Below, one piece after another: positions 4,130 through 25,027 of a DNA stretch of 64,000 nucleotides. Both the position numbers and the translations under genes were made by a program. Under the pieces are notes generated by a model. It saw only the letters and a program-made list of their open reading frames with translations. It was not told the origin of the DNA and did not search any database. Numbering within the stretch: the first letter of the stretch is position 1; each line of letters opens with the position of its first letter. This DNA comes from Candidatus Dormiibacterota bacterium (GTDB taxonomy: Bacteria > Chloroflexota > Dormibacteria > Aeolococcales > Aeolococcaceae), in assembly GCA_963756075.1 (NCBI GenBank), contig CAVWMH010000003.1, forward strand, positions 21,306 to 85,305. Reading direction: 5' to 3'.

Positions 4130-6622
4130 GCGTCCGGTAGCGTTTCCCTCCAGGTACTCGACGATGGCGTCAAGAGTCATTGCGCGGCCGGCGGCGATAG
4201 ACCTCGAAAGACCTTCGCTTCCGAGGTGCTTTTCAACGCTCGCCAGGGTGCGTTCCAATGCGACACGGTCGAAGTCCAGGTCGAAGTCGTGGCCGAAGTC
4301 GCCCTCCCGTCGCGCGGCTCCGACGAGCGCGCGGCCCACCCATGGTCGCTGACCAGGTCCGCGAGGACGGCGGCCCCGTACAAGCTTTCCGTGACGACCT
4401 CGCGGATGCCCAGACTTCGTGCTGCCGAAAGGCTCTCGGCGAAGTGTGCCCGAGCCCGAGCGTACTCGCCTAGATCTCGCTCCGAATGAGCGAGGTTCAT
4501 CGTGTAGACCGAAACGCCACGAGGGTTGCCCGACTGTCGAGCGATCGACGCCGCGCGTTCGAGCCGGTCGGCCGCACCGCGATTATCTCCGGACTCTTTC
4601 GAGATGATGGCGAGGTTGTTGAGGGCGGCCGTCAGACCGATTTGATCCCCGCAGGACTCGCAAACGTCGATGCTTTCCTGAAACAGCGCGGCGGCGCGCT
4701 CGAGGTCCCCCCCCGCTCATAAAGCAGATGCCCAGGATTCTCAGCGACATAGCGATCTGCCGCGGGTCGCCGACCGCGTGGCTGAGCTCCAGGCTCTGCT
4801 CGGCGAATCGTGCCCCCGCCCGCCCGTCTCCCCGCCGCCAGGCGATCCAGGCCGCGCCCTGCATTACCGCTGCTCGGGCCGGCGTCACGCCTGAGCTCAT
4901 AGCACGCGCGTGCTCTACGGCGCGGGTGGTCTCCTCCCATAGCCCTTGATCGAACCAGAACTTCCAGATGGCTGCTACCAGCCGCTCCTCGAGGCCCGCG
5001 TCGCCGGCCTCAACGAAGTGCTGCAGTGCGACGCGCAGGTTGTCGTGCTCGGCGCCGAGTCGGCGCGTCCACGTTGCCTGCTCGCCGCGCTCGAGCTCGG
5101 GGCGCCCCATCTCCGCCAGCTCGAGAAAAAAGCGAGCATGCCGGTCGCGCAAGCGCTCGCCCTGACCCGACGCATCCAGGCGTTCGAGCGCGTACTCCCT
5201 GATGGTCTCCAGCATGCCGAACCGATCTGCGTTGCCAGCCACAAGGCTCTTGACGACGAGCAACTCCAGCGTGTCGATGCCGGCGTCGGCGACTGCCTCC
5301 GCTGCGTCGAGCGTCCAACCGCCCAGGAACACAGCGAGCCGCGTGAAGAGTTCCTGCTCGGTGGGCGCCAGGAGCTCGTAGCTCCAGTCGATCGTCGCAC
5401 GTAGTGTTCGCTGTCGGGTCGGGACGTCGCGTGTTCCGGACGTGAGGACATCGAGGCGACGTCCCAGCCGGTCGAGAAGCTGTTGGGGTCCGAGCACCTT
5501 CACGCGCGCTGCGGCAAGCTCGATCGCAAGCGGCAGTCCATCAAGACGGCGGCAGACCTCGGCGACTGCGGCGTCCGGCTCGAAGTCGGTCTTTAACGCC
5601 CGCGCTCGTTCCGTGAAGAGGGCGATCGCATCGTTCTGTGGCAGCGGCGGCACCGCGTACTCCCACTCGCCCGAGAGCTGAAGCGGTTCGCGGCTGGTGA
5701 CCAGCAGCTTGAGCGCCGTTGTTGCTCCGAGCAGCTCGCCGAGGTTGGGGGCTGCGTCGATGAGCTGCTCGAAATTGTCGAGGAGGAGGAGGGCCTTGCG
5801 GTTGGCGAGATGCGCGGCGAGGCCGCGGAGATCCCCATAACCTTGGCGATGGTCGGCTCGACAAGGTCCGGCTCGCGCACCGGGGCGAGAGGTATCCAGA
5901 AGACGCCATCTTTGAACTCATCGATGGTTGCGGCAGCGACTTGCAATGCGAGTCGCGTCTTGCCGCAGCCGCCGGACCGACCAGCGTGACCAGACGATGC
6001 TCCCGCGACCAGCGTGGTCACCTCATCACACTCACGCTCACGGCCGATAAGTGCCGTCACTTGGATCGGAAGGTTGCTGAGGTTGAGCGTCCGCAGAGGG
6101 GGAAAATCATCCTGACCCAGCTGGTACAGATGCAGCGGCGCATCCAGATCTTTGAGGCGCTGCTCACCGAGGTCTCGGAGGTCGGCCTCACCAGGCGGGC
6201 GGTCGCCGCCGAAAGGATCGTCTGGCCTCCGTGCGCCGCCGAGCAGATGCGCGCCGCCCGGTGGACGTCGATGCCGACGTAGCCCTCGTCGGTCAGCACC
6301 GGCTCGCCAGTGTGCATGCCGATGCGCACGCGAACATCACCGCCAGCCAGCGCAGCTTGGGCCTCTCGGGCTGCCGCGGTGGCGTCGGTGGCCTTCGCAA
6401 ACGCATAAAAGAATGCGTCACCCTGGGTGTCCACCTCGACACCATCGTGTCGTTGGAAAGCTTGCCGCAACGTTCGGCGGTGCTCGTCCAGCACAGCGCT
6501 GTAGCCATCGCCGAGCTCTGCAGGAGGCGCGTCGACCCTTCGATGTCGTGAAGAGGAGGGTGACTGTGGTGGGAGTTGGGAGTGACAGGGGGAGCTTGCG
6601 ACCGGAGCCGATGCGCCGTCAA
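4130..6622 (-). pseudogene. class III adenylate/guanylate cyclase - NB-ARC/STAND ATPase - TPR protein, at least 8 frame lesions
   Basis: Homology runs across ORFs 6293-6622, 6057-6494, 5593-6060, 4583-5653, 4177-4500 and 3974-4339. The cyclase part reads TVTLLFT|DIEGSTRLLQ|ELGDGYSAVLDEHRRTL...DTQGDAFFYAF...GMHTGEP and ARLV|ADLRDLGEQRLKDL. The P-loop is GGCGKTRLALQVA. The NB-ARC part reads LPLAIELAAARVK. TPR-like repeats run to about 4140. The C-terminal end is approximate. Confidence 0.7.
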
Positions 6623-7754: not shown

Positions 7755-8384
7755 ATGTCGACACTCGCCGTCATCGTCGTCGCCGTCATCGTCGTTCTTG
7801 TCGTGCTCGCCGCGATGTTGATCACGACCCGACGTCGTTCGGACCGGCTGCAAAGCACATTCGGACCGGAATACGACAGAGCCGTCCAGCAGACCGGCGA
7901 CCGCCGTCAGGCCGAGCGCGAGCTGGCCGGTCGCGTGCAACGCCGCAAGCAGCTGACGATCGTGGCGCTGCCCGAGCCGGCTCGCCAGCAATACGTGACA
8001 CGGTGGCAGCAGGTGCAGGCTGCATTCGTCGACGCACCAGTCGAGAGCGTGCGTCAGGCCGACGCGCTGGTCTCCCAGGTCATGACCGATCGTGGTTATC
8101 CCGTCGCGGAGTTCGAACAGCGCGCCGACGATGTCTCCGTGGATCACGCAGAGGTTATCGAGAACTACCGCAGCGCCCATACGATTGCCGTCGCGAGCGG
8201 CCAGGGCAAGGCGGACACCGAGGCGCTTCGCAATGCGATGACGCAGTACCGAACCTTGTTCGATGATCTGCTTGGTGTTACTGCTTCACAGACGATCCGT
8301 GGTGTGGCGCCGGTCGCGGAGCCTCCACCACCAGCACCGCCGGCCGCTCCACTCGCCTCACCGAGAACCTCGTACGACGACTGA
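7755..8384 (+). CDS. N-terminally membrane-anchored hypothetical protein
   Basis: ATG with an AGGAGA RBS. It has one N-terminal TM helix (LAVIVVAVIVVLVVLAAMLI) followed by a charged helical region and a P/A-rich tail. I recognise no family. Confidence 0.55.
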   Translation: MSTLAVIVVAVIVVLVVLAAMLITTRRRSDRLQSTFGPEYDRAVQQTGDRRQAERELAGRVQRRKQLTIVALPEPARQQYVTRWQQVQAAFVDAPVESVRQADALVSQVMTDRGYPVAEFEQRADDVSVDHAEVIENYRSAHTIAVASGQGKADTEALRNAMTQYRTLFDDLLGVTASQTIRGVAPVAEPPPPAPPAAPLASPRTSYDD

Positions 8385-8470: not shown

Positions 8471-9646
8471 TCAGTTGTCGCGATGCCAGATGACGGCGCG
8501 AAGCCCTTCGCGAATGTAGGACTCGCTCGACCGCCGCTCCCAGAGAGCGTCCGGCAGCACGGCGTCGGCAGCCGACATGTCCGCCTCGGGGTGGTTCGCC
8601 ATGTAGGCGATCGAGTCCGGGTTGTGCCAGATGAGGTAGCCGTGGATGCCCCGTTTCGCATCCGCGCTGAGCGCCGCGGCGGCGGCTTGGGCGTTCGGGG
8701 CGACGTTGGCAAGAAGCTTGTTCTGACCCGCGTTCGCGCTCCCGTGCCCGAGGCCGGCGAGGAAGCCGTCCATGAAGGGGTCGAAGTATTCCCACTTCAG
8801 CCGGGTGACGTCGCCCGCGGCGTTGGCAGCCCCCAACTCGTTGAAGAATCCTTTCACGAACTCGACGGTGACCCCGACCCAGTCGTCGTCAGCGAGGTCC
8901 TTCATCTGTTCCTCGAACATCTTCGCGCCCTCAGCGTTCCCGTCGTACGTGGCCCACTCGTTGGAGAGCGACGCGTACCTTTGGGCGCCTGCGCGTGCGT
9001 GATCGAGCAGAGGGACCATCGCCTCCCACCCGGACGCGAGGTCTGCTCCGGTCGGCGCCGGTCCCGCGGCGGCGGCACCGTGGTCCGCCTTGGGAACCTG
9101 GAAGCCGCCGACCACTGACCAAACTGGCTCGAGATTGTCGTCGAGGACCTGGACCTTCAGGTGGTGCGATCCGAGAGCGACGGGACCGATCTGCCACACG
9201 GTGGGGTCGGTCTCGCCGAGCGCGATCGGGCCAACGGTGCCGTCATGGGGCTCGTCGTCGACGAGGAGCCGCACGTTGATCTCGTCGGCATCGCGCTGCG
9301 ACCGTTGCCGCTTGAAGGTTGCGTTGACGAAGACCGAATGGTCGGCCTGCACATCGGCCTCCAGCGCGCTGCAGACGACCGCATCGTTCGACGACGTCGC
9401 GGCGGCCGCACCAGCCTGCGCCGGCTGCCACGCGGCGCCATCCCATCGCCACTGGCCGTCGTCGGACAGCTGGCCGACCGCGTCGACCGATGACGGGGTC
9501 GAAGTGCCCGGGGCAGCTTGTGTGTCCGCCGGGGCGGCCGCGCGGGTCGCTGCGCCGGCGTCCTGGGTGACCGGCTGCCACTGTGCTCCATCCCACCACC
9601 ACTGACCGTCCTCTGATCTGGGTGCGTCTGCCGGCATGACCGTCAT
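8471..9646 (-). CDS. W-rich-repeat protein, paralogue A (candidate CIS cargo/accessory; function unknown)
   Basis: A GGAGGAG RBS lies 6 nt before ATG 9646 (the ORF-track start 9667 is an upstream TTG). The protein starts MTVMPADAPRSEDGQWWWDGAQWQPV, then has a second DGQWRWDGAAWQP motif, a beta-rich middle segment and a unique C-terminal region of about 190 aa. No signal peptide or TM segment. Confidence 0.7.
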   Translation of the reverse strand: MTVMPADAPRSEDGQWWWDGAQWQPVTQDAGAATRAAAPADTQAAPGTSTPSSVDAVGQLSDDGQWRWDGAAWQPAQAGAAAATSSNDAVVCSALEADVQADHSVFVNATFKRQRSQRDADEINVRLLVDDEPHDGTVGPIALGETDPTVWQIGPVALGSHHLKVQVLDDNLEPVWSVVGGFQVPKADHGAAAAGPAPTGADLASGWEAMVPLLDHARAGAQRYASLSNEWATYDGNAEGAKMFEEQMKDLADDDWVGVTVEFVKGFFNELGAANAAGDVTRLKWEYFDPFMDGFLAGLGHGSANAGQNKLLANVAPNAQAAAAALSADAKRGIHGYLIWHNPDSIAYMANHPEADMSAADAVLPDALWERRSSESYIREGLRAVIWHRDN

Positions 9647-9691
9647 CGATAGCTCCTCCACATGCAATCGACGCCTGGCGTGTGCGTGAGG
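9568..9691. repeat. 124-bp duplicated block, copy A (5' leader plus first 26 codons of paralogue A)
   Basis: Aligns with 10697-10820 at a constant offset of 1129 nt with 4 mismatches in 124 by manual alignment. Confidence 0.85.
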
Positions 9692-9824
9692 CCCGGGTTC
9701 CGGACCGCTTGAATATTGTGGGCAGTTGCCTCGTCATTTGTCTCGACTGCACCAGGCGCCATCAGGAGCATCTGTCCCAGCGGAGCGTGCTCGCCGATCA
9801 CAGCTGTTCGTTGCCGTTGCCGGC

Positions 9825-10775
9825 CTACCTCGAGATCGTCGACGTCCCGTCCTCGGCGATGTCCACCTCAACAGAGTCGGACGTCTCGCTCGGTCCGCTC
9901 GGGTCGACGGTGATGCTCGCTGTGATGTGATCCGGCTTGTCGGCTTCGAGCGTCAGGTAGTGTGCGCGCGGCTGCCCCGCAGTCAAGCCCGTCGTCAGGT
10001 CATAGAGCTGTGCCGACTTGGATTCCCTGCCCTCGATCTTGCCACTCACGTTCAACCCGGCCGGCACCTCGCGGTCGGACTGCAGGTCGTAATGAACGCG
10101 GAACAGGTTTCCCTGAACGTGTTCGAACTGCGTGATGGTTACCTTCAACGCGTATGTCTGGGTCTCGTCGAACGATGGGGCGGTGGCCACGGTGCCGGCG
10201 ACACGGACGGACATGAACTCGCTTGCAGCAAGTTGCTGATCAGTCGTCTTGTCTTTCACCGCCACCCACACCGTCCACGTGCCAGGATCTGCCTGGATGG
10301 GCCAGTGGCCCTGATGCACCTCTCCGGGGGCGATTGCATCCGAAATGTCGCCAAGGACGTACGCCGCGGCCTCCGCCGACGCTCCCTCGGCGAGCACGTA
10401 GAACCCGATCTCCAGCCGTCCACGCTCGATGGCGTTCGATCCCGAATTCGTCAAGTCATAGCGCACGATGAGCGCGGGAGTCCCGTCATGCGCGGTATGG
10501 GGCTCGGCCGACGTCTGGCCAAACGCGACCGTGATACCCGCGTCCGCGGTCGTTGGCGTGGCGGGCTGCCACTGCGTGCCGTCCCACCTCCACTGGCCGT
10601 CATCGGACAGCTGCCCGACCGCGTCTGACGACGTCTGGCTTGCCGAGCCCGGCGCAGCGTTGGCATCGGCCGCGGTGGCCGCGCCCGCTCCTGCGGTGAC
10701 CGGCTGCCACTGTGCTCCATCCCACCACCACTGACCGTCTTCCGATCTGGGTGCGTCTGCCGGCATGACCGTCAT
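9825..10775 (-). CDS. W-rich-repeat protein, paralogue B (candidate CIS cargo/accessory; function unknown)
   Basis: Same RBS and start context as paralogue A (ATG 10775), and the first 27 aa are identical. It has a second DGQWRWDGTQWQP motif, followed by beta-sandwich-looking segments unrelated to the C-terminus of A. Confidence 0.7.
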   Translation of the reverse strand: MTVMPADAPRSEDGQWWWDGAQWQPVTAGAGAATAADANAAPGSASQTSSDAVGQLSDDGQWRWDGTQWQPATPTTADAGITVAFGQTSAEPHTAHDGTPALIVRYDLTNSGSNAIERGRLEIGFYVLAEGASAEAAAYVLGDISDAIAPGEVHQGHWPIQADPGTWTVWVAVKDKTTDQQLAASEFMSVRVAGTVATAPSFDETQTYALKVTITQFEHVQGNLFRVHYDLQSDREVPAGLNVSGKIEGRESKSAQLYDLTTGLTAGQPRAHYLTLEADKPDHITASITVDPSGPSETSDSVEVDIAEDGTSTISR

Positions 10776-10820
10776 CGATAGCTCCTCCACTTGCAATCGA
10801 CGCCTGGCGCGTGCGTGAGG
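10697..10820. repeat. 124-bp duplicated block, copy B (5' leader plus first 26 codons of paralogue B)
   Basis: See copy A. Both copies are followed further upstream by a shared 9-mer, CCACAATAT on the coding strand, at 9713-9721 and 10845-10853. Confidence 0.85.
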
Positions 10821-10902
10821 TCAGGCACGTCCTCAACCGCCCGGATATTGTGGCCCGTCGCACGTTCGTGCGTTGCGGATGCACGGCGCGTCACGACGAC
10901 GG

Positions 10903-11550
10903 TCATCCGTCCGAACGGCGCGCGCGTATCAAGCGCACACGCTCGTCGGCGAGCGCCGTCGGAACGTGCTCCGGCGTGCCCCCTGGCACGGCGACACTGA
11001 TGCGGCGGTCGTGCACCGGCGGCCCCGCCGGGAGTGCGGCGGGGCGTGGAAGGGGTGCGATCGCCACGAGGTCGAGCGCCGGCCGGGGCGCGACCCCGAG
11101 CGCTCCCCAGAGATCCCATGGAAGACCGCCGCCCTCCGGTGGGAGCGCCACCGAAAGGAACACCGGCCGTCCTTCGCTCGCGAGCTCGCCGGTGACGTGC
11201 TCCGCGGGGATCGTCTGCTCGTCAGCCAGCGCTCCCAGGATGCTGGAGAGCAACTGGTGCTCTGCGACCGGGGTCTTTCCCCACGCCGTAACGAGGTACC
11301 GCAGACGATAGTGATGCAGCGGCGGACGGCGCCCGGTGACGCGACCCTGCTCGTTGCGGACGTCCTCATAGTCGCCGCGGCTCCTCGCGACATCTTCGCG
11401 GATCTCCCAGAGGTACGCATCGACGACGTCGCCTGCAACGGTGTCCGCCCAGGCTCGTGTGGGGGAGTCGAAGAGCACCTCGACCTTCGAGTTGTGCAGA
11501 GCGGTTGCGCGCAGCAGCGAGCGCAGCGACGCGTCGACGTCCGCGATCAT
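10903..11550 (-). CDS. DUF4255 (Pvc16/Afp16-like) tail terminator/cap protein
   Basis: MIADVDASLRSLLRA...VVDAYLWEIREDV...YRLRYLVTAWGKTPVAEHQLLSSILGAL...LWGALG follows the DUF4255 N-terminal domain pattern. The start is set at the internal ATG, since the ORF-track extension to 11742 has no homology. The gene is divergent from the sheath gene. Confidence 0.85.
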   Translation of the reverse strand: MIADVDASLRSLLRATALHNSKVEVLFDSPTRAWADTVAGDVVDAYLWEIREDVARSRGDYEDVRNEQGRVTGRRPPLHHYRLRYLVTAWGKTPVAEHQLLSSILGALADEQTIPAEHVTGELASEGRPVFLSVALPPEGGGLPWDLWGALGVAPRPALDLVAIAPLPRPAALPAGPPVHDRRISVAVPGGTPEHVPTALADERVRLIRARRSDG

Positions 11551-11735
11551 CACGCCGAGGCTGCGGTGCACGCCCTGGTGTCGCAAGGGCGGAAGGGGTC
11601 GCAGGAGGGGAAGCCGGCATTGCACCTTCGGGCAATCGTGTCTTCCCTGAAGGTTGCCCTTGCGCACCTCGTGGACGTTGCATGCGTGTGCGACTCTCGA
11701 GCGAACCACGTGTTCCATCCGTGAGGAGACTGCGC

Positions 11736-13265
11736 ATGCCAACGTATCTGTCGCCTGGCGTTTATGTCCAAGAGGTGTCGTCGGGCTCGAAACCGATCGA
11801 AGGGGTCGGCACCGCGGTTGCCGCGTTCGTCGGCCTCACCGAGCGGGGTCCGGCCAATACGCCGACCCTGGTCACCAACTGGACTCAATTCAACACCGTG
11901 TTCGGTGACTTCGTCGAGGGGTCGTATCTCGCGCACGCGGTCTACGGGTACTTCCTCAACGGTGGCGGGTCTGCATACGTGGTGCGCGTCGGTTCGGATG
12001 GCGCTGGGGAGCAGCCGAGTGCGAGAGGGGAGCTGGCCGCGCGGGAGGAGCCCGGCCGCGCGGTGTACCGGATCACCGCCGCCGAGGGCGGGCCCGCGGG
12101 TGACGACATCAGCGTCGAGATCGGCGACCCCAGCGAGGCCGGCGAAGACACGTTCAAGGTCACGGTGTCACGCGGCGGCAAGGTCGAGGAGACGTTCGAC
12201 AACGTCAGCACGAAGCGCGGTTCGAACAACGCAGCGACCGTCGTCAAAGCCCGCTCGAAGCTCATTCGTCTCGAGGAGGTCGGGACCGGCGGCGCGATCA
12301 CCCTACCCGAGAAGGCGAGCGTCAAGCTGAGCGGCGGAACGGCCGTGACCCAGGTGCGTGTAACCGCCGACGACTACGTCGGCAATTCCGCTGATCGCAC
12401 CGGCTTCGCGGGGCTCGAGGCGGTCGATGAAGTCACCATGCTGAGCGTTCCCGACGTGATGGCCGCATACCAGCGCGGCATCATCGACCTCGAGGCTGTG
12501 CAGGCGGTGCAGCTCGCGATGATCGCCCACTGCGAGTTGATGGGCGACAGGGTGGCGATCCTCGATGCGCCACCGTCGCTGAATGCCCAGCAGGTCAAGG
12601 AATGGCGCCAGGACAAGGCCGGGTACGACTCGAAATACGCGGCGCTGTACTGGCCGTGGATCAAGGTGTTCGATCCGCTCAAGGGCCAGGGCATGCTGAT
12701 TCCGCCGAGCGGCCACATGGCAGGGATCTGGGCGCGCAACGACGACACGCGCGGCGTGCACAAGGCACCAGCCAATGAGGTGGTACGCGGCGCGATCAGC
12801 CTCGAATTGCAGATCACCAAGGGCGAGCACGACCAGCTGAATCCTTCAGGCATCAACTGCATTCGCGCGTTTCCTGGCCGAGGCGTCAGGGTATGGGGTG
12901 CGCGCACCATCTCGAGTGATCCCGAGTGGCGGTACCTCAACGTCCGCCGCCTCTTCAACTACGTCGAAGAGTCCATCCTCGAAGGGACTCAGTGGGTGGT
13001 GTTCGAGCCCAACGACTCGCGCTTGTGGGACGCGGTGAAGCGCAACGTCTCGGCGTTCCTCCGCAGGGTCTGGCGCGATGGCGCGCTCTTCGGCACCAGC
13101 GCCGGCGAGGCGTTCTTCGTCAAATGCGATGCGGAGAACAACACGCAGGACACGATCGACATCGGTCAGCTGATCATCGATGTCGGGATCGCTCCCGTGA
13201 AGCCGGCCGAGTTTGTCATCTTCCGCATCGCACAGTTCGCCGGCGGCGCCGCCGTCAGCGAGTGA
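11736..13265 (+). CDS. contractile tail sheath protein (Afp2-4/Cis2-like)
   Basis: MPTYLSPGVYVQEVSSGSKPIEGVGTAVAAFVG is the canonical sheath N-terminus. The C-terminal blocks GINCIRAFPGRGVRVWGARTIS and RYLNVRRLFNYVEESI are present. GAGGAG lies 7 nt upstream of ATG 11736. Confidence 0.95.
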   Translation: MPTYLSPGVYVQEVSSGSKPIEGVGTAVAAFVGLTERGPANTPTLVTNWTQFNTVFGDFVEGSYLAHAVYGYFLNGGGSAYVVRVGSDGAGEQPSARGELAAREEPGRAVYRITAAEGGPAGDDISVEIGDPSEAGEDTFKVTVSRGGKVEETFDNVSTKRGSNNAATVVKARSKLIRLEEVGTGGAITLPEKASVKLSGGTAVTQVRVTADDYVGNSADRTGFAGLEAVDEVTMLSVPDVMAAYQRGIIDLEAVQAVQLAMIAHCELMGDRVAILDAPPSLNAQQVKEWRQDKAGYDSKYAALYWPWIKVFDPLKGQGMLIPPSGHMAGIWARNDDTRGVHKAPANEVVRGAISLELQITKGEHDQLNPSGINCIRAFPGRGVRVWGARTISSDPEWRYLNVRRLFNYVEESILEGTQWVVFEPNDSRLWDAVKRNVSAFLRRVWRDGALFGTSAGEAFFVKCDAENNTQDTIDIGQLIIDVGIAPVKPAEFVIFRIAQFAGGAAVSE

Positions 13266-13275
13266 GGGAGTAGAA

Positions 13276-13740
13276 ATGCCAGCTGGTCTTGGTCCGAGCA
13301 TGCCCAACGACGCCATCTCGGCGGCACGTTTCTCCATCACCGTGGATGGCTACGAGATCGCGCAATTCTCCGAGCTCACCGGAATCACCACCGAGGTCGA
13401 GGTGATCGACTTCATGGAAAACGGCTCCAGTGGGGCCAATATCCTGAAGAAGCTCCCCGGCAAGCGCAAGCCGCCGACGATCACGCTCCGCCGCGGCAAG
13501 AACACCTCGATGGAGCTCTGGGCGTGGCACGAGTCGGTGGTGCACGGCGACATCGTCGGCGCGCGCAAGAGCGGTTCCATCGTGATGTACGGGTACGACG
13601 GAACCCCGGTGGCGCGCTACCACTTCCACGACGGATGGCCTGCGAAGATCGCGATCAGCGCGCTCAAGGCAGGGTCGAGCGAGGTGCTCATGGAGGAGGT
13701 CACGATCGTATGTGAGTGGCTCGAGCGGGTGGCTCCGTGA
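13276..13740 (+). CDS. tail tube protein (T4 gp19 / Afp1-like)
   Basis: ISAARFSITVDGYEIAQFSELTGITTEVEVIDFMENG...GKRKPPTITLRRG...ELWAWHE, 154 aa, directly after the sheath gene with a GGGAG RBS. Confidence 0.9.
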   Translation: MPAGLGPSMPNDAISAARFSITVDGYEIAQFSELTGITTEVEVIDFMENGSSGANILKKLPGKRKPPTITLRRGKNTSMELWAWHESVVHGDIVGARKSGSIVMYGYDGTPVARYHFHDGWPAKIAISALKAGSSEVLMEEVTIVCEWLERVAP

Positions 13741-15973: not shown

Positions 15974-16414
15974 ATGGCCAGTGACGACACGTTTGGTCTC
16001 GCACTGCGATTCACCGTTGACGTGGGCAACACCAGCCTCGGGACATGGTCGAAATGCGAAGGCATCGAGATGCATTTCGACACCGTGAAATACCAGGAGG
16101 GCGGGGCGCCAGGAGCGACCTGGAACTACACCCACTACGCGACCGGGCGCGCGAACTACGTGCCGATAAAGTTGACTCGCGCGGTGACCCCGCAAGCCTC
16201 GACCGCGCTGCTGAAATGGCTGACGCAGCAGGCAAGTTCGCCTGCCGCGCCGCAGCCCGCGACGATCACGCTTCTCGACACGAACGGACAGCAGGTTCAG
16301 CAATGGACCTTCCAGGACGTGTTCCCTACCAAGTACAGCGGTCCACGGCTCGACGCGACCAGGGCCGAGGTCGCGACGGAGGAGCTCGAGCTGACCCACC
16401 AGGGATTCATGTGA
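15974..16414 (+). CDS. tail tube-family protein, paralogue 2 (Afp5-like)
   Basis: FGLALRFTVDVGNTSLGTWSKCEGIEMHFDTVKYQEGG...YVPIKLTRAV...WTFQDVFPTKYSGPRLDA follows the gp19-type tube pattern. 146 aa. Confidence 0.85.
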   Translation: MASDDTFGLALRFTVDVGNTSLGTWSKCEGIEMHFDTVKYQEGGAPGATWNYTHYATGRANYVPIKLTRAVTPQASTALLKWLTQQASSPAAPQPATITLLDTNGQQVQQWTFQDVFPTKYSGPRLDATRAEVATEELELTHQGFM

Positions 16415-16445
16415 TGCCCGCACGAAACGGAAGGAGGGGCTGACG

Positions 16446-16880
16446 GTGCCTCCCGGGTCGAATGCGCCACGGGGCCTCGCGGCCCGATTCCAGGTGACCA
16501 TCGACGGCCAGGATCTCGGCTCGTGGTCCACGTGCAAGGGTCTCGAGGTTGATTTCCAGCACGAGACATACACGGAGCTGGGCAATAACCAGTTCATCCA
16601 CTACTTGCCGAGGGCCGCCAAGTACACGCACATCACCCTCGAGCGAGCGTGCACGGCGGAGGAGTCGACCGCGCTTCAACGCTGGCTCAGCAAAGTGGCC
16701 ATGCAGCCATCAAAAGGCACCGCCAGCATCACGCTGCACGACGCACATCAAGGCGATGTCATCACCTGGACGCTGACCGATGTCTTCCCGGCGAAGTGGA
16801 CGGGTCCTCAGCTCGACGCTGGCGTGAACAAGATGGCTATGGAAACGCTCGTGCTCGCGCACGCGGGTTTCCTGGACTGA
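16446..16880 (+). CDS. tail tube-family protein, paralogue 3
   Basis: LAARFQVTIDGQDLGSWSTCKGLEVDFQHETYTELG...YTHITLERAC...WTLTDVFPAKWTGPQLDA is clearly paralogous to 15974-16414. GTG start. Confidence 0.85.
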   Translation: MPPGSNAPRGLAARFQVTIDGQDLGSWSTCKGLEVDFQHETYTELGNNQFIHYLPRAAKYTHITLERACTAEESTALQRWLSKVAMQPSKGTASITLHDAHQGDVITWTLTDVFPAKWTGPQLDAGVNKMAMETLVLAHAGFLD

Positions 16881-16884
16881 CGCC

Positions 16885-17604
16885 ATGGCATCCGGATCCC
16901 CGCTCGCAACCGGCCTCGAGCGCGCCAGTCTGGAGGGCGCGGGGCTCGTCGTGGTGCTCGGCCTGAACCCGAAGTCGCTCTCCATTCGGAGAAACACGCA
17001 GTGGCAGGCACCGGCAAACCGAAGCCCCAGCGCGGCACAGCCCGCGAGCGCGCTATCGAGCCTGTCCGGCGCCGTCCCCGTCGGCCACGGTCAGTTGCAG
17101 TACACGCGCTCTCAGCCGGCGGTGCTCTCCATGGTGGTCTGGTTCGATCGATCGTTCGATGCCGACGGCAGCATCGACTACGAGATCAACCAGCTCCAGA
17201 ACTGGACGTGCCCCACGGAGCGAATCATCACCGGCGTGTACAGCCCGCCACGAATCACGTTCATCTGGCGCAGCCTGCACTTTATCGGCGTCATCTCCTC
17301 GCTGAACATCAACTACAAGCAGTTCGGGGTCGATGGCCTGCCGGTGCGCGCTGAAGCCACCATCTCGATCACGGAAAACCCGCCCCCGATCTCCGGCACC
17401 AACCCGACCTCTGGCGGAATCTCCGGTCGGCGCGTCCACACGTTTTCCGCAGGGGACACGCTCCATTCCGTCGCGTATGCCGAGTACGGGAACCCGGGTT
17501 TCTGGCGGGTGCTCGCCGAGGCGAACGGCGTCGACGATCCGCTCCGGATCGCCGCTGGAACCGCCCTGCTCATCCCGCCAGATCCACACTCGGTTGGTCC
17601 GTGA
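16885..17604 (+). CDS. LysM-domain tube-initiator/baseplate hub protein (Afp7-like)
   Basis: The N-terminal part is tube-like. The C-terminal LysM reads HTFSAGDTLHSVAYAEYGNPGFWRVLAEANGVDDPLRIAAGTALLIP. It sits immediately upstream of VgrG. Confidence 0.85.
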   Translation: MASGSPLATGLERASLEGAGLVVVLGLNPKSLSIRRNTQWQAPANRSPSAAQPASALSSLSGAVPVGHGQLQYTRSQPAVLSMVVWFDRSFDADGSIDYEINQLQNWTCPTERIITGVYSPPRITFIWRSLHFIGVISSLNINYKQFGVDGLPVRAEATISITENPPPISGTNPTSGGISGRRVHTFSAGDTLHSVAYAEYGNPGFWRVLAEANGVDDPLRIAAGTALLIPPDPHSVGP

Positions 17605-19340
17605 TGACGGCCGATGCGCTCACGAGCTGGCCGGGTGTCGAGATCGACGGCAGTCCCCTTTCGGACGACCTCCGTATCGGGCTGACCGGCGTGGTCGTCG
17701 ATAACGACATCCACCTTCCGGACATGTTCACGATGATCTTCGATGACCCGCAGCACGATCTCATCACGGAGGCGAGCGTGCGCGTCGGCTCGGCGGTGAC
17801 CATCAAAGCCTCGAGCGTTGGTTCCACGGACAGCGATGTGCTCATCGGCGGCGAGGTCACGGCGCTGGAGGCGAGCTACGAGAGTGGCTGGGACCGCACC
17901 ATCGTTCGTGGCTATGACAAGTCGCACCGGCTGCATCGTGGCCGGCGGACCGAGACCTATCAGAACGTCAAGGTGTCAGATGTCGCACAAACAGTCGCGA
18001 GCCGCGCCGGGCTGGACATCGGCACGATCGACGACACCGGCTCGGTGCTGCCCTTCATCTCGCAGGTGAACATCACCGACTGGGAGTTTCTGCAGGCGCG
18101 CGCGCGCGAGCTTGGATTCGAGGTTGGCGTGGTTGCCGGACAGTTCTACTTCCGCAAGCCGGCCAAGTCGAGCACCGGACCCGCGCCCGGCGACTCGGAC
18201 TCCCAAGGCGCCGAGCAACTCGTCTACGGACGCGACCTGGTGAGCTTTCGTCCGCGGATCAGCTCGTCGGCCCAGGTGACGCAAGTGAGCGTCCGTGCCT
18301 GGGATCCCGACAACAAGGTCGTGCTGGTGGGGTCCGCCGACCCGGTGGCGTCGCATGCCGACCTGACGGATGATCCTGCCAGTCTCGCCCAGAACTTCGG
18401 CTCGCCGGAGTACGTGGTGCACAATCGCCCGCTGGCGTCGCAGTCTGATGTCGACGACACCGCCAAGGCTGTGGCCGAGCATCTCGGCAGCTCGTTTGCC
18501 GAGGCCGAGGGCGTGGCCGTGGGCAACACGAAGTTGCTCGCCGGGACAGCGGTGAGCATCGCCCAGGTGGCGGATGCCTTCCAGGGAAAGTACACGCTGA
18601 GCCGGACGCGTCACGTCTTCGACGATGAAGGGTACCGGACCGAATTCGAGATCAGTGGCATGCAGGATCGGTCGACGCTCGGGCTCATGTCCCTCGGGGC
18701 CACCAACGGCGCCGCGGCGGGTGGTGCTCCACCGGTGCCTGGGGTCTTCATCGGGCAAGTCACCAACAATGATGACCCCCAGCACCTCGGCAGGCTCAAG
18801 CTCAAATTCCCGTGGCTCTCGGACGCGTATGAGAGCGACTGGGCGCGCGTCGCCGTGGTTGGCGCCGGACCCAACAGTGGCGTCGTGTTCCTGCCGGAGG
18901 TCGACGACGAGGTGCTCTGTGCCTGCGAGTTCGGTGATCTCCGCCGCGTCTTCGTGCTGAGCCCGCTGCACAACGGCAAGGACAAGCCCAGTCTTGGCGA
19001 CGGACTCGTCGACGCGGGCAAGGTCAAGCGTCGCGGGATGGTATCGCGCAAAGGGCACCGGGTGGTGTTTCTCGATGACGACTCCAAGTCGGGTATCGCA
19101 CTCATCAGCAGCGACGGCAACCTCAAGGTGTCGATGAACGAGACGAGCAGCGAGATCACGATTCACTGCAAGGGCAAGGTCACGCTCGAGACCGACAGCG
19201 ACGACATCTCGATCAAGAGCGGTGCCGACGTGACCATCCAGGCGCAGGGCAACGTCAAGGTCTCCGGCTCGAGCGGGGTCAAGGTGGACGGTGGCGGTGG
19301 TGTCGTGGAAATGGCCGGCTCACTCATCAAGCTGAACTGA
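17601..19340 (+). CDS. VgrG-like spike/hub protein (phage gpD + gp5-OB, Afp8-like)
   Basis: The start overlaps the LysM gene stop (GTGATG). The gpD-like N-terminal half includes DWEFLQARARELGFEV. The OB/spike block reads GQVTNNDDPQHLGRLKLKFPWLSDAYESDWARVAVVGAGPNSGVVFLPEVDDEVL. The C-terminus has beta-helix repeats. Confidence 0.9.
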   Translation: MMTADALTSWPGVEIDGSPLSDDLRIGLTGVVVDNDIHLPDMFTMIFDDPQHDLITEASVRVGSAVTIKASSVGSTDSDVLIGGEVTALEASYESGWDRTIVRGYDKSHRLHRGRRTETYQNVKVSDVAQTVASRAGLDIGTIDDTGSVLPFISQVNITDWEFLQARARELGFEVGVVAGQFYFRKPAKSSTGPAPGDSDSQGAEQLVYGRDLVSFRPRISSSAQVTQVSVRAWDPDNKVVLVGSADPVASHADLTDDPASLAQNFGSPEYVVHNRPLASQSDVDDTAKAVAEHLGSSFAEAEGVAVGNTKLLAGTAVSIAQVADAFQGKYTLSRTRHVFDDEGYRTEFEISGMQDRSTLGLMSLGATNGAAAGGAPPVPGVFIGQVTNNDDPQHLGRLKLKFPWLSDAYESDWARVAVVGAGPNSGVVFLPEVDDEVLCACEFGDLRRVFVLSPLHNGKDKPSLGDGLVDAGKVKRRGMVSRKGHRVVFLDDDSKSGIALISSDGNLKVSMNETSSEITIHCKGKVTLETDSDDISIKSGADVTIQAQGNVKVSGSSGVKVDGGGGVVEMAGSLIKLN

Positions 19341-19341
19341 G

Positions 19342-19728
19342 ATGGGAACACCGGCGATCGTCATGGGAGATCAGATCATGGGGACGTGCCCGATCCACAT
19401 CATCCCCAACCCCGCGACGGGCGTTCCGCAGCCGTCGCCACCTCTTCCGTTCAGCGCGCCGGTCACGGTGGGCGTCTGTCCCACCGTGCTGATCGCGGGC
19501 AAAGCGGCGGCGGTGGTGGGCTGCACGGGGTTCAACACTCCGCCGCACGTCGGACTCTTCCCTGCTGACCCGTACATGGTGCCGATCATGCAGGTCGGGA
19601 CGATCGTCAGCGGCAGTACGACGGTGCTGATCGGCGGCCAGCCCGCAGCGACCGCCTCGTCGTCGTGCACCTGCTGCGCGACGCCCGGCACGATCACTCC
19701 CACAGTTACCAGCGTGCTCATCGGGTGA
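19342..19728 (+). CDS. PAAR-like spike-tip protein (Afp10-like)
   Basis: A 128-aa protein with repeated short beta-strand blocks ending VLIAG / VLIGG / VLIG and conserved Cys/His positions. It follows VgrG directly, starting 2 nt after the VgrG stop. Confidence 0.75.
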   Translation: MGTPAIVMGDQIMGTCPIHIIPNPATGVPQPSPPLPFSAPVTVGVCPTVLIAGKAAAVVGCTGFNTPPHVGLFPADPYMVPIMQVGTIVSGSTTVLIGGQPAATASSSCTCCATPGTITPTVTSVLIG

Positions 19729-19732
19729 AGTT

Positions 19733-20143
19733 ATGGCTAAAAGTGACGATTTCATAGGGTCCGGCTGGGGCTTCCCGCTGCGCACTGACACAACCGGCGG
19801 CATCGCGCTGGTCTCGAGGGAGCGAGAGCTTGAGGAGGCGATGCGCCTCATCCTCGCCACCGCACCAGGCGAGCGGCCGATGCGCCCCGAGTTCGGGTGC
19901 GGCGTGCATGACTACGTGTTCGCCGGCACCGATGCGACCTCGGCGCGCGCCATCGCGTTCGAGGTCCGCAACTCGCTGCTGCGCTGGGAACCGCGGGTGA
20001 TCATCGAGGACGTCGACGTGGTCCCTGACGACGATGACGCTGCGCTGCTCTACATCAACGTTCACTACCGGCCGAAGGCGACCAACGACCCGCGCAACCT
20101 GGTCTTTCCCTTCTACACGATTCCAAGTGAGGGCGAGGCATGA
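19733..20143 (+). CDS. GPW/gp25 baseplate wedge protein (Afp9-like)
   Basis: GSGWGFPLRTDTTGGIALVSRERELEEAMRLILATAPGERPMRPEFGCGVHDYVF...LLRWEPRV is the classic gp25 pattern. Confidence 0.9.
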   Translation: MAKSDDFIGSGWGFPLRTDTTGGIALVSRERELEEAMRLILATAPGERPMRPEFGCGVHDYVFAGTDATSARAIAFEVRNSLLRWEPRVIIEDVDVVPDDDDAALLYINVHYRPKATNDPRNLVFPFYTIPSEGEA

Positions 20144-22090
20144 CCCTTCCCGTCCCCAACCTCGACGACCGGCGTTTCCAGGACCTCGTCGACGAGGCAA
20201 AGAGGATGGTCCAGCAGCGGTGTCCCGAGTGGACCGACCACAACGTCTCCGACCCCGGTGTCACGCTCATCGAGACGTTCGCGTGGATGACCGATCAGCT
20301 CATCTACCGTCTCAATCGGGTCCCGGACCGCCTGTACGTCAAGTTCCTCGAGCTCATCGATGTCCGGCTGTTCCCGCCCACGCCGGCGCGAACGCCTCTC
20401 ACGTTCTGGCTCGCCGCGCCGACCGAGCTCGCGCAGCGCATCCCGGTGAACACCAAGGCCGCGACCATCCGGACCGAGACCGAAAAGGCGATCGTGTTCT
20501 CGACGGTCGATGACCTCGACCTGGTGCCGTGCTCGCTCGCCTCCGTTGCCACTCAGGCAGCGGCATCTGATGAGCGTGTCGACCGGACCGAAGGACTGCA
20601 ACGTGGGGCGAGGTTCGCCGCATTCGGGACGGTACCCCGGCCCGACGATTCGCTGGTCATCGGCCTCAGCGACGCCGTTCCGCGCTGCGCCATACGCCTG
20701 CGCATGCACTGCACCATCGAGGGCGTCGGCGTGGATCCCAAGGATCCCCCGCTGGTCTGGGAAGCCTGGGACGGTGAGATCTGGCACCCGTGTGACGTCG
20801 AGGCGGACGACACCGGCGGCCTCAACCGCGACGGCGATGTGGTTTTGCACGTCGGCCGGGAACACGCCGCCGCGCTGCTCGACGGCCGGCGTGGTGGCTG
20901 GCTCCGCGCTCGCGTTGTGGCCGCGGTGGTCGGTCAGTCCTCGTACACTGCATCCCCGCAGATCCACGCGATCGAAGCAGCCACCATCGGCGGAACCGTC
21001 GACGGGGTCAACGCCGAGATAGTGACCGACGAGGTGCTCGGCATCTCCGACGGGACGTCCGGCCAGCGATTCCCGGTGCGTCACGCACCGGTGCTCGCAG
21101 GTGTCGGTGAGCCGGTCCTCGAGTGCAGCGGTGACGACGGATGGGAGGCCTGGGCCGAGGTGCAGGACTTCGGGTCATCCGGTGCTCACGACGCGGTGTT
21201 CGTGCTTGACGCTGCCGCCGGCGAGGTCCAACTCGGCCCTGCGGTCCGCCAGCCGGACGGATCGATCCGGAGTTACGGAAGGGTCCCTGCGAAAGGGGTA
21301 GCAGCTCCGGATTCGTTCCTACGCGACCGGTGGCGGGCGTGGCGGCAACGTCAGTCGCGGTGCGATTTCCGTGATGAAATCCTCCATCCCTTACGTGGCG
21401 CGCGTCGAGAACCGGCAGGCAGCCCGGGGCGGTGTCGACGGCGAGGAGCTCGAGAACGCGAAGCAGCGCGGACCGATCCTGCTGCGCACGCGGGCGCGCG
21501 CTGTCACCGTCGAGGACTTTGAGCAGCTCTCACGCGAGGCCGCTCCCGAGGTGGCACGGGTTCGCTGTCTCCCGGCCGGCGAGGGCCTGGAGGCCGGGTC
21601 GGTGCGAATCCTGGTGGTCCCCGCGGCTGCGGAGGACCGGGGTCGCCTCCGATTCGAGCAGCTCATCCCGGGCGAGGAGACCCTGCTCGCGATAGCGTCG
21701 CGCCTGGAGGAATCCCGGCTGGTGGGCACCCGCGTGCTCGTCGAGCCGCCTTTGTACCAGGGGGTCACGATCGTTGCCCGTCTGCGGTCGCGGCCGCGGG
21801 CCAGTGTGGGCCGGGTCGAAGCGGCTGCGCTCGACGCGCTGTTCCGTCACCTCAATCCCGTCAGTGGCGGCCCCGACGGCCACGGGTGGCCGTTCGGCAG
21901 ACCGGTGCAGGCCGGCGAGATCTTCTCGATCCTTCAGGCGGTTCCTGACGTTGAGCTGGTGCAGGACGTGCGCATCTTCGGCGCCGACCCCACCACCGGA
22001 GCGCGCGGTCAGGCGACCCAGCGCCTTGACGTGGCGCCCAACTCGCTGGTGTTCTCCTACGAGCACCAGGTTCGAGTCGAGTCCGCATGA
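20140..22090 (+). CDS. baseplate J / gp6-like protein (Afp11-like), interrupted by an apparent 1-nt insertion at about 21302-21315
   Basis: The N-part is ORF 20140-21522 (LPVPNLDDRRFQDLVDEAKRMVQQRCPEWTDHNVSDPGVTLIETFAWMTDQLIYRLNRVPDR). Its homology stops at ..RVPAKGVAA and resumes in the +1 frame as (R)IRSYATGGGRGGNVSRGAISVMKSSIPYVARVENRQAARGGVDGEELENAK. That frame is open from 21302, after TAG 21299-21301, to 22090. Confidence 0.85.
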
Positions 22091-22648: not shown

Positions 22649-24283
22649 ATGATCGTCTGCAAGAAGTGCGGCTTCAACAATTCTGATGCCGACGCGTTCT
22701 GCGGCTCGTGCGGTGCGTTTCTGGAGTGGACGGGTGAGAAGGTCACCCCTCCGGCAACCCCAGCGCCGTCGCCTGTAGCTTCCGAACCCGCCGAACCTGC
22801 GGAGCCGGCGCGACGCGGTGGATTCATGGCGCTTGTCCAGCAGGTGACCGCGATCGGTGTGCCAAAGAAGGAGGCCATCGCTCCGCCCGGGAGCGCCACC
22901 GGTGGGTCGATGCCCCCGACTGGGATGGCGCCCCGGCCGGCGATGCCGGCGGGCTCGGCACCGCTCGGGGCACCGGGGCCGAGGCCGATCGGTCCCGCCA
23001 GTGCACCCGGAAGCCCTGTGTTCAGCGCGCAGCCGGGGTCAACGCCAACTCCGAGCCCTCCTCGGAGCGCGCCGCCCAGCTCGCCGCCGCCATCCGGTCC
23101 GCCTCGGAGTGCACCGCCGAGCGGACCACCGACGAGCCCGCCGCTGTCATCGGCGCCGCGGAGCGCTCCTCCGTCCGGGCCACCGCCGGGCGTGACCCCG
23201 ATGAGTGGGCCGCCCACGAGCCCGCCGCCATCTGGCGTGCCGCGAAGCGCACCACCTGTCGGACCGCCGCCTGGGGCTTCGTCGCCTGCGCCGGTGGCAC
23301 CAAGCCTGCCCAAACCGACACTTCCGCCGCCAACGCTCCCGGCTCCGACCGCCCCACCCGTCCTGATCCGAGTCACCCCGGAGGTGCAGCCGGCCACGAG
23401 CCCATCGGCGTCGCCATCGCAAACCCCATCAGGCGCACCCGCGACACCCGCGGAGCCGAGCGGCGTTCAGCCGGTGGCGGTGAGGACCCGGGTCGCGCCG
23501 AAGCCAACGGTCGCGCCGCCGAGCAAGGAACTGAGTGCCGGCGACCTGATCTGCGGTCAGTGTGGCGAGGGGAACGAGCCGGTCAGGAAGTTCTGCCGCC
23601 GCTGCGGCAATTCGCTCGCCACCGCAGAGGTTGCGACAACGTCGCGGTCGCGGAGATTTCTTCCCCAGCGCAAGGCGAAGGTCCTCGCTGCCGGTGAGCG
23701 TCCGGAACACGGCAAGTTCAGCTTCGGCACCGTCGTTCGGGTCGGTAGCTACGTGATCCTGGCGGTGGTGCTCATCGGCGGCATCGCCTATGGAGCGCTG
23801 CCCCAGGTTCGGGACGCGATCAACAGCCGCATGAGCGGCGCCGTCAACGCCGTGACCGGCAGCACGCCTCGTCCGAAACCGGTTGCGGCAGCGTCGGTGA
23901 CGGCCAGCTCAGCGATCGCCGGGCATCCAGCAGCCCGAGCGATCGATCCGTACATCAACACGTACTGGGCGGCGTTATTGAGCACGGACGCTCACCCAAA
24001 ACTCACGGTGACGTTCGCTCATGCCCAGAACGTCAGCGTGATGCTGTTCATCTCAGGCAACACGGCCGCGGAGGCCTCCGAGCCGCGACCGAAGACGCTG
24101 CACATTGTTTTCTCGAACGGCAAGTCGCAGGACATCACACTCGTCGACAGCGCAAAGACGCAGCAGTTCAGCATCAATGGAGCGGAGGGCATCACCGGCA
24201 TGACGATCCAGATCATGTCGGTCTACAGCTCGACGAGCGGTAACGCGGTCGCGCTGGGCGACGTGGAATTCTTCGGATCGTAG
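22649..24283 (+). CDS. double zinc-ribbon, Pro-rich, single-pass membrane protein with C-terminal discoidin/galactose-binding-like domain
   Basis: It starts 10 nt after the gpI-like stop. The parts in order are: zinc ribbon CKKCGFNNSDADAFCGSCG; about 250 aa of P/S/A-rich sequence with degenerate SAPPSGPP units; zinc ribbon CGQCGEGNEPVRKFCRRCG; a TM helix VGSYVILAVVLIGGIAYGAL; and a C-terminal domain reading AIDPYINTYWAA...PKTLHIVFSNGKSQDITLVD...AVALGDVEFFG. Confidence 0.8.
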   Translation: MIVCKKCGFNNSDADAFCGSCGAFLEWTGEKVTPPATPAPSPVASEPAEPAEPARRGGFMALVQQVTAIGVPKKEAIAPPGSATGGSMPPTGMAPRPAMPAGSAPLGAPGPRPIGPASAPGSPVFSAQPGSTPTPSPPRSAPPSSPPPSGPPRSAPPSGPPTSPPLSSAPRSAPPSGPPPGVTPMSGPPTSPPPSGVPRSAPPVGPPPGASSPAPVAPSLPKPTLPPPTLPAPTAPPVLIRVTPEVQPATSPSASPSQTPSGAPATPAEPSGVQPVAVRTRVAPKPTVAPPSKELSAGDLICGQCGEGNEPVRKFCRRCGNSLATAEVATTSRSRRFLPQRKAKVLAAGERPEHGKFSFGTVVRVGSYVILAVVLIGGIAYGALPQVRDAINSRMSGAVNAVTGSTPRPKPVAAASVTASSAIAGHPAARAIDPYINTYWAALLSTDAHPKLTVTFAHAQNVSVMLFISGNTAAEASEPRPKTLHIVFSNGKSQDITLVDSAKTQQFSINGAEGITGMTIQIMSVYSSTSGNAVALGDVEFFGS

Positions 24284-24327: not shown

Positions 24328-25020
24328 TCAGATGAATCCCTGGCGGAGCGCGTACGCGACAGCGTGAGTGCGATTTCGCAGATGCAGCCGGCTTGTGATG
24401 TCGTGCACGATGTGTTTCACGGTGCGCTCCGAGTAGAAGAGTCGCCGGCCGATTTCATCGGTGTCGAACCCGTCCGCCATCAGGCGGAGCACGCGCACCT
24501 CGCGTTCGGTGAACCCCGAGAAGCGCAGGCCGCGCGGTGTGAGCACATCGCGCTGCAGACGACCGACGTGGTCGAGGAGCTGACCGAGCAGGTCGGGCGA
24601 CATGGCGGCGGCGCCGCTCGACGCTGCTCGAACGGCGTCGACGATACGGTCCGGTGTCGCCTCGCTTCGCCGAAGCACGCTGGACGCCCCTGCCTCCACC
24701 GCGTTCAGCAGGTCACCGTCGCCGAGGCGCGTCACCACCAGGACGACACGGCTCTCGTCGCCGACGCGAGCGGCGCGTATGGCAGCAAGCGCGGCGTCGT
24801 CGACGTCATCGGCGAGGACAACGGTGACGCCGGCGGTGACGCCGGCGGAGACCTCGTTGTCGGCGTCGAGCACCTGCACCTCCGGACGATACGCGAGCTG
24901 GGCGGCCAATCCCGCGCGCGACATCGGATCCTGTGTCCTGATGGCGAGTGCCACGCGTTGAACGCTGGCGAGGGCGACCACGGCGCGAACGGTGGCACCT
25001 GCACGTTGACGGGCACTCAA
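24328..25020 (-). CDS. LuxR/NarL-family regulator with atypical receiver-like N-domain
   Basis: The C-terminal HTH reads FTEREVRVLRLMADGFDTDEIGRRLFYSERTVKHIVHDITSRLHLRNRTHAVAYALRQGFI. The N-domain is receiver-like but lacks the usual N-terminal DD pair (ALAIRTQDP). It starts 7 nt after the stop of the upstream STAND-SARP gene. Confidence 0.8.
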   Translation of the reverse strand: MSARQRAGATVRAVVALASVQRVALAIRTQDPMSRAGLAAQLAYRPEVQVLDADNEVSAGVTAGVTVVLADDVDDAALAAIRAARVGDESRVVLVVTRLGDGDLLNAVEAGASSVLRRSEATPDRIVDAVRAASSGAAAMSPDLLGQLLDHVGRLQRDVLTPRGLRFSGFTEREVRVLRLMADGFDTDEIGRRLFYSERTVKHIVHDITSRLHLRNRTHAVAYALRQGFI

Positions 25021-25027
25021 CGCCCAC

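Follow-up and report, generated by a model that had tools for sequence, protein, structure and literature searches.

The 64,000-nucleotide window analysed here (Candidatus Dormiibacterota contig CAVWMH010000003.1, positions 21,306 to 85,305) contains the cluster that encodes a contractile injection system (CIS), and two genes, called A and B in the following, lie downstream of its Pvc16_N/DUF4255 cap gene on the same strand. Both encode a tryptophan-rich (W) N-terminal leader followed by unrelated C-termini. They belong to a polymorphic family whose genes are enriched near CIS genes, take up slots in CIS clusters such as the one after the cap gene, and occur in clusters without the gene-15-type AAA+ ATPase. 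Our preferred reading, to which we assign a probability of roughly 0.4, is that A and B are payload-slot genes of a polymorphic, CIS-coupled family of payloads or accessories in which the tryptophan-hairpin leader would act as the shared coupling handle. Binding of the W proteins to the CIS, their delivery, any activity and a role as cargo reach beyond the genomic association, and we infer them from it.

The ATG starts of A and B were placed at 9646 and 10775 within the minus-strand open reading frames (ORFs) 8471-9667 and 9825-10796, each with a GGAGGAG Shine-Dalgarno (SD) sequence 7 nt ahead of the ATG (Table 1). The ORF coordinates and the Pvc16_N match of the neighbouring gene (E 1e-28) bear out the initial annotation, made from the DNA letters alone, which had placed both genes directly after the cap gene. 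In BLASTP, the two proteins were 73% identical over residues 1-83 (E 6e-29), with residues 1-27 identical at 27 of 27 positions, and no alignment was obtained beyond; profile comparison put the end of homology at the same limit. Exactly four W units were found in the window, all in A and B, so that each leader is followed by a second unit. The identical start, the repeated unit and the unrelated C-termini noted at the outset were thereby all reproduced. A and B are conserved genes with dozens of metagenomic homologues.

The similarity of the two genes is not confined to the coding sequence. Their DNA is ~97% identical from about -50 to +100, and a common CACAATAT box lies ~75 nt upstream, indicating that the duplication or conversion took in the 5' region. 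An orthologue of A on a related contig (protein P0005, locus L007) has another leader variant (MPDIPQDAQRS...), only one W unit and a different upstream sequence, while A of the window has promoter-proximal DNA, leader, linker and second W unit of the B type. The N-terminal module was therefore recently exchanged between the paralogues. The CACAATAT box and the UCGAU...AUCGA palindrome enclosing the SD sequence were also observed upstream of W genes in L007, L009, L016, L019, and L023. No significant RNA structure relative to shuffled sequence was detected in the duplicated 5' regions (fold z-scores -0.7 to +1.7), and the sequence scan gave no matches to sigma-70 promoters or intrinsic terminators.

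To get a view of the encoded proteins, B was modelled by AlphaFold2 with an alignment of 50 sequences and A with 8 sequences. The model of B, with a mean predicted local distance difference test (pLDDT) score of 86, consists of two short beta-hairpins, a disordered linker and two beta-sandwich domains. In the first hairpin W16-18 is paired with W23-P25, and the pairing in unit 2 is equivalent. For A the pLDDT was 56; the hairpins and the single sandwich (aa 90-184) reached ~80, and the C-terminal 190 aa, named the AC domain here, were predicted to be helical with low confidence. The models thus agree with the beta-sandwich segments, the mostly helical end of A and the further beta structure of B that had been proposed, with the reservation that applies to the helical part. 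Foldseek searches of the PDB and of viral models with B returned only generic immunoglobulin (Ig)-like matches, such as transglutaminase C-terminal barrels and phage Ig/FN3 modules, and no match to Pfam, NCBIfam or PHROGs was found for A, B or P0063, a further member of the family. Both proteins are acidic. As stated in the initial annotation, neither has a transmembrane (TM) or signal-like hydrophobic stretch or a Sec/Tat-like signal (maximum Kyte-Doolittle value KD19 of 0.97 and 1.21).

Homologues originated mainly from metagenome-assembled genomes (MAGs) of Candidatus Dormibacteraeota and to a lesser extent from Actinomycetota. In Dormibacteraeota the leader follows the pattern M-x-x-[MIV]-P-x-D-A-[PQ]-R-S-[ED]-DGQWWWDG-x-x-WQPV, begins in all cases at the initiator Met and heads ~20 mutually unrelated C-terminal types, so the polymorphic layout suspected from A and B alone extends to the family. 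The largest is the B type, a big conserved family of ~320 aa. Besides the A type there are, among others, P0063 and its relatives, which are ~345 aa long and helical and include a hydrophobic helix, small CARDB-like proteins containing Cys, and several short acidic proteins. Dormibacteraeota MAGs carry several copies, at up to 6 loci. The leader is far better conserved than the C-terminal part, being mostly invariant in the B family, where the remainder is 47-87% identical, and the second W unit of B has 19 of 20 residues in common with a repeat of Jatrophihabitans, a member of the other phylum. In some members, as in L080, the N-terminal W module is followed by a TM helix. A search of a 5.8-billion-protein set with a 42-aa leader profile returned only proteins of 30-73 aa and therefore says little about architectures. 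Many stand-alone mini-proteins of 57-73 aa with little beyond the W leader were seen in Pseudonocardiaceae and metagenomes (P0085-P0119).

The resemblance of the W unit to DUF2510 (PF10708), which had been suggested earlier, is real but lies below threshold. The isolated A leader scored 15.4 bits (E 0.016) against a gathering cut-off of 24 bits, and weak matches were obtained for 6 of 36 leaders (best E 0.0055), DUF2510 being the only Pfam family that recurred in the leader scans. No DUF2510 match was found in the Actinomycetota W proteins with four repeats. Since the scores remain under the cut-off, we regard this as a sub-threshold relationship and not as membership. The two have in common a short W-rich unit ending in [RW][YW]WDGxxW, and differ in the first half of the motif.

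To assess the genomic neighbourhood, one genome per species was scanned for the motif, and the 80 loci kept were searched with all proteins of the window CIS cluster. CIS genes lay within 10 kb in 23 of the 80 loci, compared with ~1.2 expected. The neighbourhood enrichment that had been put forward as a check was thus found, as a 20- to 40-fold excess with a binomial P of ~1e-14 in each phylum, in a set where orthologous loci are not independent. In the operational sense of enrichment within 10 kb of CIS structural genes, the family is CIS-associated. Among the Dormibacteraeota MAGs with two or more loci, 11 of 12 had one or more W genes at the CIS.

Three slots are used repeatedly, and their occupants vary between genomes. 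The first, downstream of the cap gene, holds B or B plus A (window, L007, L010, L011, L019), and the order cap gene, B, A is kept in L007. The second lies between the distal LuxR/GerE gene and the gene of the zinc-ribbon protein that ends the structural operon; it holds the small CARDB-like and other types (L025, L026, L028, L030, L031, L041, L048, L062). The third, past a gene resembling Sco4256 of Streptomyces coelicolor, holds the P0063 type (L057, L061) or, in L009, a 90%-identical copy of A, at the opposite end of a CIS cluster. Nine CIS loci of Actinomycetota, from Jatrophihabitans, Pseudonocardiales, and unclassified MAGs, have two or three genes in tandem right after DUF4255, whose products combine PG_binding_1 at the N-terminus with 1-4 W repeats at the C-terminus. 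In L039 (8486-9598, plus strand) and L052, both Pseudonocardiales-type loci, a gene inserted between the PG_binding_1 plus W genes after DUF4255 encodes a 370-aa protein with no family match and an HALEDSYSQAH motif, a possible enzyme payload. No recurrent adaptor or chaperone gene was found beside orphan W genes; only LuxR/GerE-type regulators recurred, at a rate judged compatible with chance.

The clusters with W genes also share an absence. No homologue of the gene-15-type AAA+ ATPase was found at E below 1e-10 in the 64-kb window or in any CIS-adjacent W locus (L007, L010, L011, L019, L025-L031, and L034-L071). The ATPase gene adjoins the cap gene in ~25 related CIS loci from metagenomes. 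W ORFs are absent from all of these, and within the loci compared W genes and ATPase are mutually exclusive. In related clusters the cap gene is followed either by a WHD-AAA ATPase of the gene-15 type and then eCIS_core (DUF4157) proteins, or by a Peptidase_C70 gene. The W-associated clusters hence look like an ATPase-less CIS subgroup, and they depart from the description of extracellular CIS (eCIS) regions as invariably encoding this ATPase (PMC10020575). One of the related loci, L120, has an AvrRpt2-like cysteine protease of the Peptidase_C70 family right after the cap gene (5676-6137, minus strand), which is a plausible effector.

The closest precedent for A and B is provided by Sco4256-4258 of S. 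coelicolor, three paralogues of the CIS cluster with a similar N-terminus and different C-termini that have been put forward as effectors (Casu 2023, PMC10066040; Vladimirov 2023, PMC10020575); the triple mutant has a mostly empty tube lumen (Casu 2023, PMC10066040). Like A and B, most of them have no recognisable toxin domain, and an immunity gene is missing. On the other hand, members of the Sco4256 family combine a PapD-like N-domain with a single TM helix; A and B have no TM helix, and the W leader is a module different from that N-domain. The window itself encodes a 327-aa protein (28914-29897, plus strand) that has a tail rich in Pro/Ser/Thr besides two Ig-like domains and a single TM helix (LVELAGLIAAAGVAALVWV). 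It fits the published Sco4256 family of putative effectors, and homologues are present in CIS loci of Actinomycetota as well as in 8 CIS loci from metagenomes. A relationship between the B family and this Sco4256-like orf327 was considered and rejected (hhalign probability 0.9%).

In the antifeeding prophage (Afp) and the Photorhabdus virulence cassettes (PVC), payload genes likewise follow gene 16, the cap gene, and the payloads combine N-terminal determinants with diverse C-termini. A and B match this position but not the presence of a gene-15 AAA+ ATPase in the cluster. The loading signals of PVC are poorly conserved, disordered, ~50 aa long and dependent on the Pvc15 ATPase, whereas the W tag is a near-invariant hairpin, predicted to be folded, in a cluster without ATPase. 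The MIX and FIX domains of the type VI secretion system (T6SS) and DUF4157/eCIS_core, a published marker of eCIS toxins (Geller 2021, PMC8213781), also combine a conserved N-terminal domain with variable C-termini and with both cluster and orphan genes, and the eCIS_core proteins of related clusters fill the slot that W proteins hold in the window. These markers have no sequence relation to the W leader, and the W proteins differ in having no detected toxin domains or immunity genes. Measured against polymorphic toxin systems in general, the family has the conserved N-terminal module on variable C-termini, while no recognisable toxin domain was found in A, B or P0063 and no immunity gene next to A and B.

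Under the payload-slot reading, A and B would be members of a lineage-specific polymorphic family with a tryptophan-zipper-like beta-hairpin leader of ~27 residues and an optional second W unit, tied genetically to the ATPase-less subgroup of Streptomyces-type (class IId-like) CIS in Candidatus Dormibacteraeota and some Actinomycetota. Loading into the CIS particle or attachment to it could proceed through the hairpin, a handle common to the diverse C-terminal domains, and these domains would supply the activity: a tandem Ig binding module in B, and in A a helical domain that probably acts on the cell envelope. W copies elsewhere in the genome may be orphan payload genes, as with T6SS effectors. 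A more specific proposal, which we put forward tentatively and hold to be rather doubtful, is that the leader is an undescribed, ATPase-independent recognition tag recruiting polymorphic cargo to a subgroup of cytoplasmic (Streptomyces-type) CIS, its near-invariance (19 of 20 residues across two phyla) reflecting binding to a conserved surface of tube, spike or cap.

Several observations weigh against the payload-slot reading. CIS genes within 10 kb are missing from 57 of the 80 motif loci, for example where B-type genes lie beside secA or PEP mutase genes, and orthologous synteny inflates the enrichment statistics. In the reverse direction, 80 metagenome loci were taken by way of a related sheath (52-99% identity), and W ORFs were present in only 2 of them, of which one is Dormibacteraeota-like and the other Actinomycetota-like. 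None was found in the ~9 loci where the sheath is 68-73% identical and the sequence runs at least 1.4 kb past the cap gene. W genes thus do not occur in most related CIS clusters, as a core component would, and the W module is rather a clade-specific accessory than a general part of the CIS. The Actinomycetota W repeats, being C-terminal and multiple, fit poorly to an N-terminal signal, and one gene for a PG_binding_1 plus AC protein has a BTAD regulator as its neighbour and no CIS genes in the surrounding 10 kb. Neither A nor B contains a recognisable toxin or enzyme domain in Pfam, NCBIfam, and PHROG scans, and B is, as modelled, a non-enzymatic tandem Ig protein. Finally, no immunity gene lies directly downstream: B is followed by A, and A by a convergent 209-aa ORF (7755-8384, plus strand). 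The lack of an immunity gene would fit a CIS lethal to the cell that makes it, a role that has been proposed in Streptomyces. Of the initial proposal that A and B are candidate cargo or accessory factors, the polymorphism, the enrichment and the cap-gene slot were substantiated. With no toxin domain or immunity gene, with B as a putative tandem Ig protein and with most loci away from CIS genes, the proteins would still be labelled candidate cargo.

Among the other explanations, the one that fares best takes the W hairpins as cell-envelope binding repeats for peptidoglycan or glycopolymers, comparable to choline-binding, LysM, and PG_binding modules, with no part in loading. A wall-associated protein family would then stand beside the CIS because the CIS lyses its producer from within and so gives signal-less proteins access to the wall, as for endolysins. 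This is consistent with the W units being short aromatic beta-hairpins that occur in 1-4 copies at either terminus, with their fusion to PG_binding_1 in 13 Actinomycetota loci and with the Streptomyces CIS being cytoplasmic and linked to lysis (PMC10066040). It would not, however, require the Dormibacteraeota unit to be fixed at Met1 over ~20 architectures, and several paralogues per genome without an export signal are not readily accommodated. In addition, no similarity of the W units to a known wall-binding repeat family was detected. Overall, we consider wall binding an unlikely explanation of the leader.

The AC domain of A bears on the same question. It is rare: a word-indexed search gave 2 matches, and an exhaustive phmmer search of 1.84 billion representative proteins gave 12 representative clusters. 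In 8 of these 12 an N-terminal PG_binding_1 domain is joined to a C-terminal AC domain. Endolysins with an N-terminal PG_binding_1 domain, such as phiKZ gp144 (PDB 3bkh), are built alike, the AC domain standing at the site of the catalytic domain, and the AC homologues, too, have no signal peptide. The endolysin matches in PDB and PHROGs covered only the PG-binding part. Unlike the catalytic domains of endolysins, the AC domain has no match among solved structures or families: when AC proteins were compared with the PDB by sequence and by fold, only PG-binding or Ig parts were matched. A, moreover, has W hairpins in place of PG_binding_1. An invariant acidic pair of catalytic appearance was not seen across the AC homologues. 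Because the AC domain elsewhere replaces the catalytic domain of PG_binding_1 'endolysin-like' proteins, A probably acts on the cell envelope, an action that is plausible but unproven. One AC homologue (P0007) is located ~6 kb past the CIS baseplate genes of another genome; the PG_binding_1 plus AC genes lie on short contigs or next to BTAD regulators without CIS genes. Some distant AC members have a hydrophobic helix (KD 1.6-2.0) before a conserved AANxAGD motif; P0078 and P0080 are AC homologues with such a helix. The cluster-4 slot-3 family was examined as a possible relative of the AC domain and rejected, as there was no profile similarity.

It is also conceivable, though in our view improbable, that A and B are structural or adaptor accessories, which might decorate the cap or sheath or form a fibre-like tether, with the hairpin as an anchor outside the particle, and are not injected cargo. 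Their place in the cap-gene operon would suit such a role, as would the conserved, apparently non-enzymatic tandem Ig of B, which recalls phage decoration and fibre modules, the likeness of the PG_binding_1 plus W proteins to two-ended tethers, and a CIS class without a conventional tail fibre (PMC10066040). Against this, a structural part is expected to be constant, whereas the slot occupants vary by genome, B-type genes are often far from the CIS and most related CIS have no W genes. A further alternative is that the family has no functional link to the CIS. It would then be DUF2510-like, expanded in the lineage and of general use in the cytoplasm or at the membrane, and local duplication and inherited synteny would have brought it next to the CIS. 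The location of most copies elsewhere in the genome, the weak DUF2510 similarity, the members with a TM helix after the W module (L080), the recent local duplication or conversion of A and B and the inflated counts speak for it. It is improbable as well, given that the association is seen at three slots, involves different C-terminal types and extends to two phyla whose architectures differ, and given the size of the observed excess.

Cargo selection by the CIS of Gram-positive-type and uncultured soil bacteria is largely unknown, and only the Sco4256 family and proteins linked to DUF4157 have been candidates to date. If the payload-slot reading is true, a short, folded, near-invariant tag on payload-slot genes would represent a testable loading rule for an ATPase-less CIS lineage. 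It would also allow a genome-wide listing of candidate cargo in the uncultured phylum Candidatus Dormibacteraeota, and could possibly be used as a handle for payload engineering. The results furthermore give a first genomic context for a DUF2510-like motif and for a new AC domain that pairs with peptidoglycan-binding domains. A search of the literature library found no paper on CIS in Dormibacteraeota, on the W motif or on DUF2510. The W module, its link to a CIS lineage without ATPase and the AC domain seem to be new; as a kind of arrangement, marker domains on polymorphic secretion-system proteins are already known.

Table 1. Genes A and B, their parts and the adjoining cap and sheath genes (positions in the window).
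Feature	Position	Strand	Description
Gene A	8471..9646	-	391 aa: leader, linker, second W unit, one Ig-like domain, helical AC domain
A leader	9566..9646	-	aa 1-27, MTVMPADAPRSEDGQWWWDGAQWQPVT; predicted beta-hairpin W16-18/W23-P25
A second W unit	9416..9478	-	aa 57-77, VGQLSDDGQWRWDGAAWQPAQ
A Ig-like beta-sandwich	9095..9379	-	aa 90-184; pLDDT ~80, generic Ig matches
A C-terminal helical AC domain	8474..9064	-	aa 195-391
A 5' region duplicated with B	9647..9721	-	CACAATAT box; UCGAU..AUCGA palindrome around SD GGAGGAG
Gene B	9825..10775	-	316 aa: leader, linker, second W unit, two Ig-like domains
B leader	10695..10775	-	aa 1-27, same sequence as A leader
B second W unit	10557..10619	-	aa 53-73, VGQLSDDGQWRWDGTQWQPAT
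B Ig-like domain 1	10200..10529	-	aa 83-192; pLDDT >90
B Ig-like domain 2	9831..10148	-	aa 210-315; pLDDT >90
B 5' region duplicated with A	10776..10853	-	
Pvc16_N/DUF4255 cap (tail terminator) gene	10903..11550 (ORF 10903-11742)	-	probable start MIADVD; Pvc16_N E 1e-28
CIS sheath gene	11736..13265	+	start MPTYLSPG; divergent from cap gene, first of structural operon

The structural operon of the window encodes the sheath, three gp19-type tubes, eCIS_core, CIS_tube, VgrG, PAAR, gp25, baseplate J/TssF-like and Tail_P2_I proteins. Tube genes lie at 13213-13740 and 15974-16880, and VgrG and PAAR are encoded at 17601-19728. Its baseplate J/TssF-like gene (20140-22090, plus strand) is split over two frames at ~21,280-21,300, while the homologue in L026 is a single frame of 683 codons. 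The split is either an assembly indel or the mark of a pseudogene, which would inactivate the CIS. An adenylate-cyclase/AAA-type regulator gene (4583-6494, minus strand) is apparently broken as well, into three overlapping ORFs in different frames, and this may be a second sign of assembly indel errors. The protein encoded by the last gene of the structural operon (22649-24283, plus strand) has two zinc-ribbon regions and ends in a NADase-type glycan-binding (discoidin-like) domain; as the gene takes the position of Sco4242/CisA in Streptomyces, its product is a candidate membrane or fibre adaptor. The distal flank of the cluster (24328-28243, minus strand, and 27893-28879, plus strand) encodes a LuxR/GerE regulator, a 1071-aa AAA_22/BTAD regulator and an NHL-repeat protein. 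Every Dormibacteraeota CIS locus compared had kept this arrangement, and the Actinomycetota loci, too, had the GerE gene conserved.

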